Positions 32 to 7,164 of a stretch of DNA of 7,164 nt are shown one piece after another. Location: IMG/VR virus record IMGVR_UViG_2695420763_000004; one strand, given 5' to 3'. Position numbers and translations under genes: made by a program. The DNA is from a virus. Lineage: Duplodnaviria; Heunggongvirae; Uroviricota; Caudoviricetes. Below the pieces are notes generated by a model. It searched no databases and had not been told where the DNA came from. It saw nothing but the letters and a program-made list of their open reading frames with translations. The stretch's first letter is position 1. Each line of letters opens with the position of its first letter.

Positions 32-58
32 AAAAAAGCCCGCCTGAACCGGCGGGCT
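32..58 (-). terminator. Putative rho-independent terminator downstream of lom
   Basis: Plus strand reads aaaaaa (32-37) then gcccgcc (38-44), loop tgaacc (45-50), ggcgggc (51-57). On the minus-strand RNA this is a 7-8 bp GC-rich stem followed directly by UUUUUU, about 27 nt after the lom stop codon (85-87). Confidence 0.6.
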
Positions 59-691: not shown

Positions 692-717
692 ATAAAAAAG
701 GCGTCATTCCTGACGCC
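692..717 (-). terminator. Putative rho-independent terminator between J and lom
   Basis: Plus strand: aaaaaa (694-699), ggcgtca (700-706), loop ttcc (707-710), tgacgcc (711-717). On the minus-strand RNA: 7-bp stem GGCGUCA/UGACGCC with a GGAA tetraloop, followed by UUUUUUAUU. It sits about 23 nt after the J stop codon (740-742). Confidence 0.6.
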
Positions 718-739: not shown

Positions 740-3700
740 TCAACGAATACTGATGCCGGAAGCCGCTTTTTTGGTCACAATCACCGTACAGTCGGTGATA
801 TTGCCTGCCCCCTGATTGCCTTTCTGGAAAATCTTAAACTCCAGAGTGACGCTACCACCACCACTAGGCATATCAATAACTGCACTGTAACTACCGGGAA
901 TGGCCCCTTTAGTTTCTCTGGATGCGATTAATACGCCGTTTTTGCGAACTTCAAAACCATAACCCGTGTATCGCGTGCCTCCTGGGTTATTTCCGCTCCC
1001 CGGATCGTCATACGCTATACCGTTAAAAATAATGGGCGGAATAATAATCTGGCGGTCAAAGTTATGATCATCGCTGATGGTGACTGTAACCGTCCCGTTT
1101 GGTGTTTCCGTGTTACCCCACGTACCGACTTTTTTCGGGAAGGCTTTTGATACAGCTTTAACGAAATCCCCTCTGACCTGGGTCGCCTCCAGCATGCCCT
1201 TAATCGTACAGTTCTGGTTAATCGTGACATTGTTGAGCGTTCCTGAGTTCGCATTCACACTACCACTGATATCCGCATTTTTAGCGGTCAGCTTTCCGTC
1301 TGATGTCAGGGAAAATACCGGAGGACTGCCACCGCTGGTAATGGTGGGGGCCGTCAGGCGCTTCAGGAACACGTCGTTCATGAATATCTGATTGCCCTGC
1401 GCCACAAACATCGGCGTTTCATTCCCGTTTGCCGGGTCAATAAATGCGATACGGTTAGCGGCAACCAGAAACTGACTCAGTTTGCCTTCCTCCGTGTCCT
1501 CCATGCTGAGGCCAATACCCGCGACATAATGTTTGCCGTCTTTGGTCTGCTCAATTTTGACAGCCCACATGGCATTCCATTTATCGTTGGCATCCTTCCA
1601 CTCTTTCGAAAACTCCTCCAGTCTGCTGGCGTTATCCTCCGTCAGCTCGACTTTTTCCAGCAGCTCCTTGCCGAGATGGGATTCGGTTATCTTGCCTTTG
1701 AAAAAATCCAGGTAACCTTCCGCATCATCGCTCGCCCGACCGACGGCCTCCACGAATGCCGATTTGCCAACGGTGTTCACACTGCGGATATAAAAGTAAT
1801 AATCATGGCCCGGTTTGATATTGATACTGGCGGCTATCCAGTACAGCGCCGTACCAAGATAGCGGGCTGTGGTTTCAACCTGCCTGATATCCGCAATCCG
1901 CTTTTCCGAGAACCAGAACTCAAACTGTACCGTCGGATCATAAACCGCAAGATGCGGCGTGGCGGTTATCTGAAAATAGCCCGGCGTCAGCTCAATCCGA
2001 GACGGCGCTGCCGGTGCGGCAATCCGGAACGATACCGATGCCGGATCGCCCTGCTGTCCCCACGCATTTACCGCCCGGACTGTCAGCCTGTAGTTCCCCA
2101 GCGCCAGTTGCGTGAAGCGGTATGTGGTTTCCGCCGTCCGGGCCGTGCTGACCAGCCGCTCACTGCCGTCATCCGCTGCCACGGTCAGGCGAAGCAGGAA
2201 GCTCACGCCCTTCACCACCTTCGGCGTGTCCCAGCGGGCCAGTACCTGATACTCCCCGCTGTCTGCGGTGACTTCGGCAGTCAGGTGCTGCACCGCTGGC
2301 GGCGTGACACCATTCACCGTGCCGCTCTGGTCGCCGTCAAAGTGCGCCCCGTTATCCACGATGGCTTCTTTTTCCGGTACATGCTGCACGGCAGTGATGG
2401 CATACGTGCCGTCATCGTTCTCACGGATACTCACACAACGGAACAGGCGCTGGCGCAACGTCGGCAACTTCAGCCCCCATACGCTGTATCCGGCAACGCC
2501 GTCAGGAACACGGCTCACTTTTACCTTCACGCCGTCGGTGACGGACTGGACCTCCACGCTGACCGGATTGCCACTTCCGTCAACCAGGCTTATCAGCGTG
2601 GTACCGGAGGATGGCAGCGTGATTTCACGGTCGAGCGTCAGCGTCCGGGTCTGGCTGTTCACCGCCAGCACGCGCCCGCCGGTGCTGATACCGGCATAGT
2701 CATCATCGCAGATTTCAATGACATCGCCCGGTACATGGCGAAGCCCTTCCGCACCCACGCTGAAGTCCACGGTCTGCGTTTCCAGCAGCTCCGTTTTAAT
2801 CAGCCACAGCCCGGCTCGGTGTGCCTGCCCCCGGCTGGTACAGCCAAAGGCATCCATCTTCGTGACGTTACGACCGTAACGGGCAATGGCCTGCGTGTCC
2901 TCCACAAGCTCTGTCGCCGTCTCCCAGCCGTTATCCGGGTCAATCCAGTTCACCTCAACGGCATTATGGCGGTCCTTGAGGGCGCTGAAGCTGTAGCGGA
3001 ACGGCGCGCCATCATCCGGCATCACCACATTACTGCGGTTATAGGTCCACACCTTATCCGACGGTCGGTCCTGCACGAACGTCAGCGTCTGCCCGTTCCA
3101 TACCGGCATACAGCGCATCGCCGAGCAGAAATCACTGAGCACATCCCACGCCTTGCGCTGTGTGGTCAGGTACGCATTACAGGTGATGCGCGGCTCCGTG
3201 CCGCCAAAGCCGTCCGGCACTGACTGGTCGCAGTACTGGCCGATGATATACAGCGCCCATTTATCCACATCCGCCGCACCAAGACGTTTTCCCATGCCGT
3301 AGCGCGGGTGGGTCAGCATATCCCACAGACACCAGGCCATGTTGTTGCTGTATGCCGGTTTTAACGTTCCATCCCAGATACCACTGTATTGCCGCGTCTG
3401 CGGGTTATAGTTCGACGGCACCTGCAGAATGCGCCCGCGAAGATGATAATTACGGCTCACCTGCTGGCTGCCGAACTGCTCCGAGTCCACCTGCACGCCG
3501 ACCAGTGCCGTGTTCGGGTAGCACTGTTTCACATCGATGATTTCGGTGTATGACGACCAGAGCGTTTTGTTCTGCAGCTGGTCTGTGGTGCTGTCCGGCG
3601 TCATCCTGCGCATCCGGATATTAAACGGGCGCGGCGGCAGGTTATCCACCACCACCGAGGCCAGATACTGCGAGGTGGTTTTGCCCTTAATGGTGATGTC

Positions 3701-4153
3701 TTTTTCCGTCACCCAGCCACCGTTACGTTGTATCTGAACCAGCAGGCGGACTTCCGATGGATTCCGGTCCCCCTTTGAGGTGGTTTCCACCAGTGCCTGC
3801 ACGCCGAAAGTAAAACGCAGACGGTCAATGTTTGCCGACGTGATGGTCCGGGTGATCGGCGTGTCATATTTCACTTCTGTACCGAGCACCGTCTCGGAGC
3901 CGGAGGATTCAAATCCCTCCGGCGGTGTCTGCTCCTGCTCACCGGCCCGGAACACCACCGTGACGCCGGATATATTGGTATTCCCCTCACTGTCCAGCAC
4001 CGGCGTACTGTTCAGCAGCACGCTTTTTAATCCATCCACCGGACCTTCAACCGGCCCTTCGCTGATGGCATCGATCACACTCAGCAGCTGCGTGGACTTC
4101 AGGTTGTCCTTCGCTTCGCGCGGGGTATGCCCCTTACTGCTGCCTTTACCCAT
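740..4153 (-). CDS. J: Central tail fibre / host specificity protein J (tail tip attachment protein)
   Basis: 1137-aa ORF. From the N-terminus [34 protein letters not shown]... through roughly residue 960 it is near-identical to my recollection of lambda gpJ (1132 aa). The last ~160 residues are related but clearly diverged. GGAG Shine-Dalgarno (plus 4162-4165) lies 8 nt upstream of the ATG (4151-4153). Position between I and lom matches lambda. Confidence 0.95.
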
Positions 4154-4161
4154 TCGTCATG

Positions 4162-4165
4162 CTCC
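4162..4165 (-). promoter_or_regulatory. Shine-Dalgarno sequence for J
   Basis: Minus-strand GGAG, 8 nt upstream of the J ATG. Confidence 0.6.
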
Positions 4166-4195
4166 ATAAACGATAAAACCGCCCGGAGGCGGTTT
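4166..4195 (-). terminator. Terminator-like hairpin in the I-J intergenic spacer (possible attenuator or mRNA-stability element)
   Basis: Perfect inverted repeat aaaccgcc (4176-4183) / ggcggttt (4188-4195) with loop cgga (4184-4187). On the minus-strand RNA the GC-rich stem is followed by UUUUAUCGUUU (plus 4165-4175), then the J SD and start codon. Confidence 0.45.
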
Positions 4196-4213
4196 CACAT
4201 AAAACGTTTTTCA

Positions 4214-4885
4214 TCAGCGACCAATCACCACAACCTGACCACCATCCCCTTCGTCTGCCGTGCTGATCTCCTGAGAGACCACCCGCGACCCCACGCGCAT
4301 TTCACCGTACAGAACGGGCAGAACATTGCCCTGGGCAACCATGTTATCCAGTGACGAGAAATACGTGTTCTGTTTGCCGTTATCTGTACTGGCTGCCGTG
4401 GGCGTCCTGGCTTTCGGTGCCAGCATCTGCGCCACACCACCGAGCACCATACTGGCACCGAGAGAAAACAGGATGCCGGTCATACCACCGGCCCCAATGG
4501 CTGCCCCCCATGCTGCAAGGGTGGCTCCGGCGGTAAAGAATGATCCGGCAATGGCGGCAGCCCCCAGGACAATCTGGAATACGCCACCTGACTTGGCCCC
4601 GGCGACTCTGGGAACAATATGAATCACAGCGCCATCAGGCAGAGTCTCATGTAACTGCGCCGTTAACCCGGACGTGCTGACGTCCCGCCCGGCAATCCGT
4701 ACCTGATACCAGCCGTCGCTCAGTTTCTGACGAAACGCCGGGAGCTGTGTGGCCAGTGCCCGGATGGCTTCAGCCCCCGTTTTCACACGAAGGTCGATGC
4801 GGCGACCAAATCGTTGTAAATCCCCGTAAAGGCAGATGCGCGCCATGCCCGGTGACGCCAGAGGGAGTGTGTGCGTCGCTGCCAT
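4214..4885 (-). CDS. I: Tail tip assembly protein I
   Basis: 223-aa ORF MAATHTLPLASPGMARICLYGDLQRFGRRIDLRVKTGAEAIRALATQLP..., matching lambda gpI (223 aa) from memory. The start overlaps the 3' end of K by 103 bp in a different frame, as in lambda. Tandem stops TGATGA at the 3' end. Confidence 0.93.
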   Translation of the reverse strand: MAATHTLPLASPGMARICLYGDLQRFGRRIDLRVKTGAEAIRALATQLPAFRQKLSDGWYQVRIAGRDVSTSGLTAQLHETLPDGAVIHIVPRVAGAKSGGVFQIVLGAAAIAGSFFTAGATLAAWGAAIGAGGMTGILFSLGASMVLGGVAQMLAPKARTPTAASTDNGKQNTYFSSLDNMVAQGNVLPVLYGEMRVGSRVVSQEISTADEGDGGQVVVIGR

Positions 4886-5526
4886 TTGTCGGTGTACCTC
4901 TCTCGTTTGCTCAGTTGTTCAGGAATATGGTGCAGCAGCTCGCCGTCGCCGCAGTAAATTGCGGCGTGATTCGGCACTGATGAACCAAAACAGCACAGCA
5001 GCACATCGCCCGGCTGTGCCGCTGACAACGGCACCTGATACAGCCCCGTCGCCTCCAGATTATCCAGATAGAGATTCTGACCGTGACGCCACCAGTCATC
5101 CTCACGATAAAAGTCCGGCATCTCAATCCCCGCCAGATGATAAGCATCCCGGAACAGTGTGTAACAGTCCGTCACACCGTGCTCAAAGCGCCGCCCGGTG
5201 AGATGCGGCACACAGCGGAACTTATGAATCGTCCCCCGGCAGACCAGCCACCACGGCAAATCACTCTGCACCTGCAGCCGCCGGTCGGCCTCACTCAGCC
5301 AGGGCAGACCACCGGGGTGGCTGTGGACCAGCGCCACAATCTCACCCTGCATTTCTGCCTGCAGCCAGTCTTCCGGCGACATACGGAAATACGCCTCCGG
5401 CTCACCGGAGATATTCACGCAGGGAAAATATCTTTCCCCCTCCGGCGTGCTTACCACGAAGCCGCACGACTCCGCTGGCGCACATCGCCGGGCGTGCGCC
5501 AGAATCGCTGATTCTGTCTGTGTCAT
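4783..5526 (-). CDS. K: Tail tip assembly protein K (JAMM/MPN metallopeptidase-like plus NlpC/P60-like domains); long 247-aa form, classical 199-aa start would be at 5382
   Basis: 247-aa ORF MTQTESAILAHARRC... The ATG at 5524-5526 is 5 nt downstream of the L stop. The classical lambda K annotation (199 aa) corresponds to the in-frame Met49 (codon 5380-5382), which is preceded by GGAGG at a 13-nt spacing. JAMM-like motif HSHPGGLPWLSEAD (H68, H70, S78, D81). A DCYT cysteine (C121) and downstream His residues are consistent with an NlpC/P60 papain-like fold. Confidence 0.9.
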   Translation of the reverse strand: MTQTESAILAHARRCAPAESCGFVVSTPEGERYFPCVNISGEPEAYFRMSPEDWLQAEMQGEIVALVHSHPGGLPWLSEADRRLQVQSDLPWWLVCRGTIHKFRCVPHLTGRRFEHGVTDCYTLFRDAYHLAGIEMPDFYREDDWWRHGQNLYLDNLEATGLYQVPLSAAQPGDVLLCCFGSSVPNHAAIYCGDGELLHHIPEQLSKRERYTDKWQRRTHSLWRHRAWRASAFTGIYNDLVAASTFV

Positions 5527-5531
5527 GGGAT

Positions 5532-6230
5532 TTACTGCGAAAGTTTGTTAATGGAAAGGAAGCCGCCAAAGTTGCCGACGTTATTGCGGAACTTACAACC
5601 GCTCAGGCATTTGCTGCATTTATCCTTCGTGATATCGGACGTTGGCTGGTCATATTCATCCGCGACAGCCGGACCGCTATAACCGCACTCGTCACCGCGA
5701 TAGGTCCAGGTGCAGGTGTTGGCCAGCATGATACGTCCCGGAAAAACAGCGCCATCCGTTTCCGTCGGCGTGGACAGTACAAAGGAGGCACTCACCGCGC
5801 TCAGTTCGCTGCACTGCTCAATGCGCCAGCGGCTGATCACCTCCTGCTCCGGATCGGCGTAACTGTTTCCGTTGACGAAGTTCACCGCATCCAGAAAACG
5901 GGCGTAAACCTTACGCCGGACCACCGCTCCGCCGACCAGACTCTGCATATCTTCCGCCATCCCGGTGACCATACCGTACAGGTTAGAAACCGTCAGCGTG
6001 GGGCGCGTACTGGTGCCTTTGCCATTCAGTTCAAAACCGCTCCCCTGAATGGGATACGGCTGATACTGTCGCCCCTGCCAGGTGACCGGCTCACCTTTTT
6101 CGTTCTGCTCATTACAGAAAAAATAACGTTCTCCACCGACCTCTGTCAGGTCGATTTCCCAGAGCACCACGCTGGCCGACTGCTCCGCACGGGTGCATTC
6201 ATTCAGTGTTTCCTGCCGGATATCCTGCAT
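5532..6230 (-). CDS. L: Tail tip assembly protein L
   Basis: 232-aa ORF MQDIRQETLNECTRAEQSASVVLWEIDLTEVGGERYFFCNEQNEKGEPVTWQGRQYQPYP..., matching lambda gpL (232 aa) from memory. Its start codon shares one nucleotide with the M stop (ATGA-type overlap). C-terminal Cys cluster C-x8-C ... C-x2-C-x3-C. Confidence 0.95.
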   Translation of the reverse strand: MQDIRQETLNECTRAEQSASVVLWEIDLTEVGGERYFFCNEQNEKGEPVTWQGRQYQPYPIQGSGFELNGKGTSTRPTLTVSNLYGMVTGMAEDMQSLVGGAVVRRKVYARFLDAVNFVNGNSYADPEQEVISRWRIEQCSELSAVSASFVLSTPTETDGAVFPGRIMLANTCTWTYRGDECGYSGPAVADEYDQPTSDITKDKCSKCLSGCKFRNNVGNFGGFLSINKLSQ

Positions 6231-6559
6231 CAGTTCACCACCTGTTCAAACTCTGCGCTGAACTCAACACGCAACATACTGACCCGCGACGACCATTTTG
6301 CGCAGGTCACCTTTATCTGCCGCCACTCATAAGGCGGCGTCCACAGAAAGGATTTCCAGCCCCCGTGCTCTTCCAGAAACGACTCCAGTACCGTGGCCTC
6401 CTCACGGGGGACAGAAAGCGTCACGCTGTACGTTTTCAGGTTGGCATTCAGCCCGGCAGGCGCTCGCTGAGAATAGCCATCACCAAAGCGCACCTTTCTT
6501 ACAGAAGGGACCGAAGCCACATCCATACCGGGTTTCACTTTCCAGCGGAAGGTCTTCAT
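6230..6559 (-). CDS. M: Tail tip assembly protein M
   Basis: 109-aa ORF MKTFRWKVKPGMDVASVPSVRKVRFGDGYSQRAPAGLNANLKTYSVTLSVPREEATVLESFLEEHGGWKSFLWTPPYEW..., matching lambda gpM (109 aa) from memory. Its start overlaps the H stop by 4 bp. Confidence 0.95.
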   Translation of the reverse strand: MKTFRWKVKPGMDVASVPSVRKVRFGDGYSQRAPAGLNANLKTYSVTLSVPREEATVLESFLEEHGGWKSFLWTPPYEWRQIKVTCAKWSSRVSMLRVEFSAEFEQVVN

Positions 6560-7164
6560 CGTCCACCTCCGGAGAACAGGCCACCATCACGCATCTGTGT
6601 CTGAATTTCATCACGGGCACCCTTGCGGGCCATGTCATACACCGCCTTCAGAGCAGCCGGACCTATCTGACCGTTCGTGCCGTCGTTGTTAATCACCACA
6701 TGGTTATTCTGCTCAAACGTCCCGGACGCCTGCGACCGACTGTCCGCCATGCTGCCCGGTGTACCGACATAACCGCCGGTGGCATAGCCGCGCATCAGCC
6801 GGTAAAGATTCCCCACGCCAATCCGGCTGGTTGCCTCCTTCGTGAAGACAAATTCACCACGGTGAACAATCCCCGCTGGCTCATATTTGCCGCCGGTTCC
6901 CGTAAATCCTCCGGTTGCAAAATGGAATTTCGCCGCAGCGGCCTGAATGGCTGTACCGCCTGACGCGGATGCGCCGCCACCAACAGCCCCGCCAATGGCG
7001 CTGCCGATACTCCCGACAATCCCCACCATTGCCTGCTTAAGCAGAATTTCTGTCATCATGGACAGCACGGAACGGGTGAAGCTGCGCCAGTTCTGCTCAC
7101 TGCCGGTCAGCATCGCCGCCATATTCTGTGCAATACCATCAAAGGTCTGCGTGGCTGCACTTTT
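6556..7164 (-). CDS. H: Tail tape measure protein H, C-terminal fragment (5' end lies beyond the window)
   Basis: The frame is open from the window edge (7164) to the stop at 6556-6558. The track shows only the part from an internal Met (7122), but the 14 upstream codons (KSAATQTFDGIAQN) contain no stop. The Gly-rich C-terminus ...GIVGSIGSAIGGAVGGGASASGG...GGLFSGGGR matches the lambda gpH C-terminus from memory. Position immediately upstream of M matches lambda. Confidence 0.9.
   Translation of the reverse strand, partial: KSAATQTFDGIAQNMAAMLTGSEQNWRSFTRSVLSMMTEILLKQAMVGIVGSIGSAIGGAVGGGASASGGTAIQAAAAKFHFATGGFTGTGGKYEPAGIVHRGEFVFTKEATSRIGVGNLYRLMRGYATGGYVGTPGSMADSRSQASGTFEQNNHVVINNDGTNGQIGPAALKAVYDMARKGARDEIQTQMRDGGLFSGGGR

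Follow-up and report, generated by a model that had tools for sequence, protein, structure and literature searches.

What is a terminator-like hairpin doing inside a phage tail operon, immediately upstream of the gene for the tail tip? The question is raised by a 7164-nt stretch of viral DNA (hereafter, the window) that carries a minus-strand tail operon in the lambda-type order H-end, M, L, K, I, J, lom. All sensible long ORFs in the ORF list of the window lie on the minus strand. The end of gene H (6556–7122) is followed by M (6230–6559), L (5532–6230), K (4783–5526) and I (4214–4885), which encodes a 223-aa tail assembly protein (Pfam Lambda_tail_I, E = 1e-28); next come J (740–4153), encoding the 1137-aa tail tip/host specificity protein, and a lom-like gene (85–669; Pfam Ail_Lom, E = 1e-115), all on the minus strand. 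A 601-nt piece spanning the I-J junction matched annotated lambda-like junctions over its full length at 92–98% DNA identity.

Some details of the ORF map deserve mention. The K ORF measures 247 aa from its first ATG, compared with 199 aa in the lambda reference; the phage 434 record has the long form. The end of K is overlapped by I over 103 nt, the same as in lambda. Antisense to J, the plus strand of the window contains a 564-aa ORF (1529–3223), and an ORF of identical length is found in lambda (L055, 3436–5130, minus strand). Though unusually long, it is probably a shadow ORF that results from the codon pattern of J.

The I-J spacer is 60 nt long (4154–4213) and contains no ORF. On its upstream side, gene I is closed by tandem in-frame stops, TGATGA (4216–4211, minus strand); among relatives the first stop is kept and the last base of the second is variable. 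The sense RNA of the junction reads UGAUGA-AAAACGUUUUAUGUG-AAACCGCC-UCCG-GGCGGUUU, where UGAUGA is the I stop plus the second in-frame stop, and continues as UAUCGUUUAU-GGAG-CAUGACGA-AUG, where GGAG is the J Shine-Dalgarno (SD) sequence and AUG the J start. The preliminary description had placed a perfect 8-bp inverted repeat with a 4-nt loop in this spacer, and its coordinates proved exact: the arms, 4176–4183 and 4188–4195, are complementary at 8 of 8 positions. On the minus strand the core hairpin (4176–4195) consists of the 5′ arm AAACCGCC (4195–4188), the loop UCCG (4187–4184) and the 3′ arm GGCGGUUU (4183–4176). The core is preceded by GUG and followed by UAU-CGUUUAU, so described in the sense RNA, and addition of the pairs G4196.U4175, U4197-A4174 and G4198.U4173 gives an extended helix (4173–4198) of 11 possible pairs, present in both the minimum free energy (MFE) and the centroid structure. 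The U-rich tract UUUUAUCGUUUAU (4166–4178, tail score 4.65) that was said to follow the hairpin is present; however, it extends into the A-U end of the stem, so that three of its U's lie inside the 8-bp helix. The SD and start codon of J are located downstream of the hairpin, as described: GGAG occupies 4165–4162, 8 nt before the AUG (4153–4151), with 22 nt between the 8-bp stem and the AUG. A ribosome_binding_site is annotated at the equivalent site in the records of phage 434 and lambda h434 imm21.

Such a repeat is seldom produced by chance. When the spacer was shuffled with dinucleotide composition preserved, a perfect inverted repeat of at least 8 bp with a loop of 3–8 nt appeared in 93 of 20000 shuffles (p ~0.005). 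The 7164-nt window contains two perfect repeats of this class, both intergenic (4176–4195 and 37–58), versus 0.82 expected. Folding-energy calculation, suggested earlier as a check, came out in favor of the hairpin: a 91-nt sense fragment folds at −28.2 kcal/mol (z = −2.7, versus z = −1.4 for the antisense strand), and its MFE structure retains the hairpin in the extended, 11-pair form. We conclude that the I-J hairpin is real and above chance.

Terminator prediction gave a divided answer. The hairpin was not listed by a simple terminator scan of the window, because the stem, when fully extended through A-U and G.U pairs, leaves a poor tail, CGUUUAUGG. When the stem was taken to be the G+C core CCGCC-UCCG-GGCGG (dG −9.7 kcal/mol), the tail became UUUUAUCGUUUAUGG (tail score 4.65) and the d'Aubenton-Carafa discriminant d was +34.5 on the sense strand and +2.3 on the antisense strand; d was calculated with ViennaRNA energies, and its values and threshold, here and below, are indicative only. 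With eight perfect pairs, five of them G-C, and a 4-nt loop, the stem has the form expected of an intrinsic terminator, and both d and z favor the strand that is transcribed. Interruptions break up the U tract (UUUUAUCG), and GUGAAA on its upstream side is able to pair with it; together with the silence of the simple scan, this suggests that termination efficiency may be low. Arms, position and d score alike bear out the claim that the transcribed strand has a terminator-shaped hairpin just before the ribosome-binding site of J, and it is plausible that the I-J site is a sense-strand-specific terminator of moderate quality. No match to Rfam 15 covariance models was obtained in the window near 4154–4213 at E values up to 1, or in seven related loci at E values up to 0.1.

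The scan of both strands also located the neighbors of this element. The next terminator-like hairpin, GGCGTCAGGAATGACGCC, lies in the J-lom spacer (700–717, minus strand; sense d = +43.3); it is T-rich on either side and scores as terminator-like on both strands. Another is found past the lom-like gene (37–58, minus strand; d = +56), and lom is bracketed by the two. Four promoter-like matches were detected in the window, compared with 3.4 expected from shuffles; since this is no excess, no upstream internal promoter can be claimed.

The hairpin is not special to the window. Lambda has a homologue, GAAACCGCC-UGCG-GGCGGUUUUGUCAUUUAUGGAGCGUGAGGAAUG, starting at 15466, and in the GenBank record of phage 434 (OL657226) the homologous 20 nt (15466–15485) are labelled 'terminator', a bare regulatory feature to which neither note nor evidence is attached; the lambda reference records have no feature at the I-J hairpin. 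The lambda and 434 hairpins share with that of the window the stem AAACCGCC/GGCGGTTT and stand equally far from the SD and from the start of J, with 93–98% identity across the junction. The loop is UCCG in the window and in 434 and UGCG in lambda, and a few changes separate the U-rich tracts (UUUUAUCG here, UUUUGUCA in lambda). Judged by these correspondences, the window hairpin is the lambda I-J hairpin, an element already known from lambda and from the annotation of one public record. It is also common: with a 141-nt junction query, 4176 of the 5426 complete E. coli genomes (77%) gave matches, at 8056 places in all. A search of the accessible literature for termination, 3′-end mapping, ribosome profiling or sequence of the I-J site found no relevant study. 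Near-identical lambda J was also encountered on short, low-coverage contigs labelled Bacillota, Kitasatospora, Paenibacillus, Shewanella, Bradyrhizobium and others (L005, L010-L023, L026-L028, L030, L035-L037, L039-L044 and others); these are almost certainly lambda DNA contamination of the assemblies.

The same boundary was then compared across phage lineages. J homologues were found in 1531 phage records, from which several lineages were sampled. The first IMG/VR scan returned near-identical J genes only, and the range of lineages was obtained by separate queries and by tblastn against a phage collection; in a wide J alignment, no stretch was conserved enough to reach distant loci in one scan. 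In all 80 of 80 HK022/HK97-type IMG/VR loci the boundary carries GCCACC-NNNN-GGTGGC followed by T6–T8, 17 nt before the J start, with 10 loop variants. Stx-type phages have an unlike stem, ACAGGCACC/GGTGCCTGT, followed by UGUUUUU, 51 nt before J, and Serratia phage Stoker has GCCCC/GGGGC plus U7 at the I-J boundary. In a T1-like phage, CCCGC/GCGGG plus U8 is followed by the −10-like motif TGTATAAT. No hairpin was found where I and J abut (ES18-like Oslo, Dickeya Sucellus) or, near J, at the E. albertii-type junction, which holds reverse-strand sodC cargo; the element is therefore not indispensable. Altogether, 10 of the 14 lineage representatives have, in the 300 nt upstream of J, a hairpin that scores d ≥ 19. 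Of 60 control windows of 315 nt taken downstream of the J start, 1 does, and it spans the J-lom terminator. The unrelated hairpins share only a G+C stem and a sense-strand U run, which is the definition of an intrinsic terminator. This is our main argument that the role of the element is termination rather than something sequence-specific.

Two of these junctions have features of their own. In the T1-like phage CLB_P3 (L142, 790–868) the motif TGTATAAT that comes after the I-J terminator resembles an extended −10; on this ground, J may begin a separate transcription unit in this virulent lineage. The Stx-type junction contains a 240–250-nt insert (L003, 565–804; L141, 652–900) with a strong antisense-strand terminator right after I (d = +48.5 in L003) in addition to the sense terminator 51 nt before J. 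Its small ORFs are not conserved between L003 and L141, and it has no Rfam match. The insert could be an unannotated small-RNA locus.

An intercistronic hairpin may also act after transcription. According to this alternative, which the preliminary description had already raised, the late transcript always reads through, and the stem adjusts relative half-lives: it would block 3′-to-5′ exonucleases after cleavage in the J message and so protect the upstream tail-gene mRNA, or it would cap the 5′ end of J mRNA once the A/U-rich stretch 5′ of the stem had been cut. Stabilization by intercistronic hairpins is an established mechanism. A stable, conserved stem (core dG −9.7 kcal/mol; 11-pair helix in the MFE structure) placed between low-copy assembly genes and a 3.4-kb gene would suit it, and REP elements, the mRNA-stabilizing hairpins of E. 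coli operons, are likewise stable stem-loops between cistrons of one operon. REP elements, in contrast, are repeats scattered through the host genome that lack a U run, whereas the I-J element is specific to phages, is found once at each junction and has a conserved U run. A stabilizer needs no such run, yet the unrelated boundary hairpins all have U6–U8 or UGUUUUU directly 3′, which favors termination over a pure exonuclease block. Moreover, a promoter-like motif comes after the T1-like hairpin, an arrangement found at true operon boundaries. We consider stabilization unlikely to be the main role.

An effect on J translation appears less probable still. The hairpin might keep the U-rich tract (a possible S1-binding enhancer) and the SD single-stranded, or uncouple initiation at J from ribosomes that finish I. 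In several lineages it lies at a short, constant distance from the J start (17–26 nt), UUUAUG(G/A) follows the hairpin in lambda-type phages, Gifsy-2, HK-type phages and Stoker, and HK-type J has no obvious SD past the U run, all of which would fit. But in Stx-type and T1-type phages the hairpin stands 51–56 nt from the J start, away from the SD, and the computed accessibility of the SD-AUG region showed no consistent trend, with values of 0.46 for the wild type, 0.56 when the 5′ arm was scrambled and 0.28 when the hairpin was deleted.

What lies between I and J in relatives bears on the terminator reading. When cargo is present there, the hairpin usually still adjoins J. In L124 a plus-strand ORF for a 116-aa lipoprotein-like product (1084–1434) ends just before the hairpin, and in a Citrobacter locus (L038) a minus-strand gene for Cu/Zn superoxide dismutase (sodC, 834–1364; Pfam Sod_Cu) occupies the slot, with an identical hairpin after the gene. 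In HK-type loci the cargo consists of plus-strand ORFs of 88–309 aa or of minus-strand ORFs, and 20 different 8-mers stand directly 5′ of the stem. The hairpin directly follows a cargo gene in relatives L124, L155, L157, L161, L202 and L220; it does not do so in the window, where the 60-nt spacer is ORF-free. Cargo that is inserted while the hairpin is retained by J indicates that, in the loci compared, the I-J boundary is a cargo hot spot and the hairpin its usual J-side (right) edge.

Further cargo genes were noted in this slot. In E. albertii-type loci, sodC ORFs (L031, 213–872, and L034, 327–986, both minus strand) were recognised by reading the sequence only; the product of sodC in the I-J slot, encoded on the reverse strand, is a periplasmic Cu/Zn superoxide dismutase. 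Plus-strand cargo ORFs (L157, 213–947; L202, 13–942; L161, 361–939; L220, 22–927) yielded one Pfam UPF0257 match and 192–309-aa proteins without Pfam match. Two other candidate occupants of the site were discarded. The EHEC anti-sRNA AgvB was ruled out: there was no Rfam match, AgvB and AsxR sit at the PR′ moron site (PMC4104026), and Pas sRNAs are found near Q and the lysis genes (bioRxiv 2026.05.13.724894). A satellite attachment site in the I-J spacer was rejected as well, published helper-embedded satellites integrating inside late genes instead.

Morons are cargo genes that have entered a phage operon and are expressed on their own (Juhala et al. 2000, cited via PMC4104026 and PMC2629481). 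The I-J element resembles moron terminators in that plus-strand cargo ORFs of relatives end directly before it, and lom in the window is likewise bracketed by hairpins. It differs in that the I-J spacer of the window has no cargo and that J keeps the hairpin irrespective of which cargo is present and which way it points, as would be expected of a resident of the slot and not of a component of one given moron. A closer parallel is offered by P22-like phages, in which an 'ant moron' slot lies just 5′ of the tailspike gene and transcription through the slot is thought to influence tailspike levels (PMC2629481). Both are single variable cargo slots in a morphogenetic operon, just before the gene for a receptor-binding protein. 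P22, unlike the phages considered here, is a podovirus and not a siphovirus, its slot has unrelated genes and sequences, with repressors and an antisense RNA, and no homology is expected. As an analogy, the 'ant moron' slot is the closest published parallel that we found.

These arrangements also suit a reading in which the hairpin has no present function in a cargo-less phage, being either the leftover terminator of a former cargo gene or a recombination joint for tail-tip modules and cargo. Mosaic breakpoints do coincide with the base of the hairpin, as seen from the 8-mers 5′ of the HK-type stems and from differing upstream sequence in L038 and L079/L124, and plus-strand cargo ORFs stop just short of it. 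A relic, however, should decay. We analyzed 63 distinct compact lambda-type junctions, out of 99 loci, and found that 1 of 16 hairpin stem columns was variable, versus 18 of 44 in the remaining spacer (p = 0.012, Fisher) and 62 of 99 third-codon positions in the flanking parts of I and J (p = 2e-5, Fisher). In these cargo-less junctions the stem is constrained to the level of codon positions one and two of J, where 10 of 120 columns vary. Decay is in fact seen in the degraded prophages L045 and L047, where the J match is broken up and the hairpins are disrupted. The pattern of substitutions shows the stem to be under purifying selection, and we give little credence to a functionless relic or joint.

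Other features of the variation bear on whether the structure is maintained as RNA. The sole change in the lambda-type stem, C>U, retains a U.G pair, and the loop is free to vary (UGCG, UCCG, UCAG, UCUG). In the U tract, U4178–U4175 are invariant in relatives and columns 4174, 4171, 4169 and 4167 are variable. The extended helix is paired in 98.8% of cells across 30 lambda-type sequences. No double-sided covariation was detected in the lambda-type alignment, whose variation is so low that shuffles do not separate observed from random. The L079/L124 type, AGCCGCC-UUUUG-GGCGGCU, provides one compensatory change, A-U to G-C, in an alignment read by hand; MAFFT had put the L079 row one column off in the covariation alignment. 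Stem changes in HK022/HK97-type phages produce G.U on the sense strand at four positions and A.C at none, with one transversion mismatch, so that pooling with the lambda type gives five wobble changes against zero A.C, as fits an RNA helix on the transcribed strand and does not fit a DNA palindrome. A double-stranded palindrome bound by a dimeric regulator or nucleoid protein, without RNA structure, is accordingly very improbable: an 8+4+8 repeat with a variable center is the usual shape of a dimer-binding site, but in two lineages the stem substitutions that retain sense G.U break DNA symmetry, entirely different stems occupy the same place in other lineages, and the asymmetric T run is conserved.

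On balance, we lean towards the hairpin being a moderate sense-strand intrinsic (Rho-independent) terminator that stands between the tail-assembly genes and J and is read through by Q-modified polymerase. Polymerase lacking the late antiterminator would stop at the I-J hairpin; this would include prophage-internal transcription, for example from the I-J cargo ('moron') genes of relatives. J, lom and the downstream genes would thereby be insulated. During lytic growth, polymerase that was modified by Q at the late promoter would pass the hairpin, and translation of J would use its own SD, with the J start 22 nt downstream of the 8-bp stem. In lambda, J is an essential gene on a Q-dependent 27-kb late transcript (PMC10695390). 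A consensus scan, which is weak evidence, found no promoter-like site between hairpin and J. Since an essential, Q-dependent gene follows a 22-nt gap without a promoter-like match, we infer, as a reasonable reading, that the hairpin is read through, one of the options named in the preliminary description. Actual termination and the insulating role we likewise infer. Q and PR′ lie outside the 7164-nt window, and the placement of the late promoter holds for lambda, whose junction is homologous. Against the terminator reading, the window has no cargo gene and nothing obvious to insulate.

A known counterpart, among the lambdoid late-operon terminators that Q-modified polymerase reads through, is tR′, downstream of PR′, which also combines a G+C stem with a sense U run and leaves distal genes in need of an antiterminator (PMC7547250; PMC10695390). 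tR′ is a regulated switch next to its promoter, whereas the I-J site is a predicted terminator about 15 kb into the operon, with a weaker U tract.

A wider proposal is more speculative, and we doubt that it will hold in full. The hairpin might be a selected insulator that spans lineages and defines the sole cargo slot of siphovirus tail operons, next to the 5′ end of the gene for the receptor-binding tip; functionally it would match the 'ant moron' slot that precedes the P22 tailspike gene. Such an insulator would let prophages express sodC or lipoproteins without J, and residual termination of Q-modified polymerase, or a stable RNA formed by the 3′ part of I with its end at the hairpin, could tune the supply of tail tips. 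The preliminary description had likewise suggested that the hairpin may set the amount of J relative to the upstream genes, which would be a further candidate role.

If the window alone is considered, a terminator here is of little consequence, as intrinsic terminators inside antiterminated phage operons are a well-understood class. The comparison makes a modest addition to a known element, namely its recurrence across lineages and its position at the boundary of a cargo slot. For annotators, the hairpin is a reliable landmark of the 5′ edge of J, and it marks the right edge of the I-J slot for sodC and other lysogenic-conversion genes. It would also be a natural substrate for measuring how fully Q-modified polymerase ignores a distal terminator, and could show whether such sites shape the ratios of late proteins.
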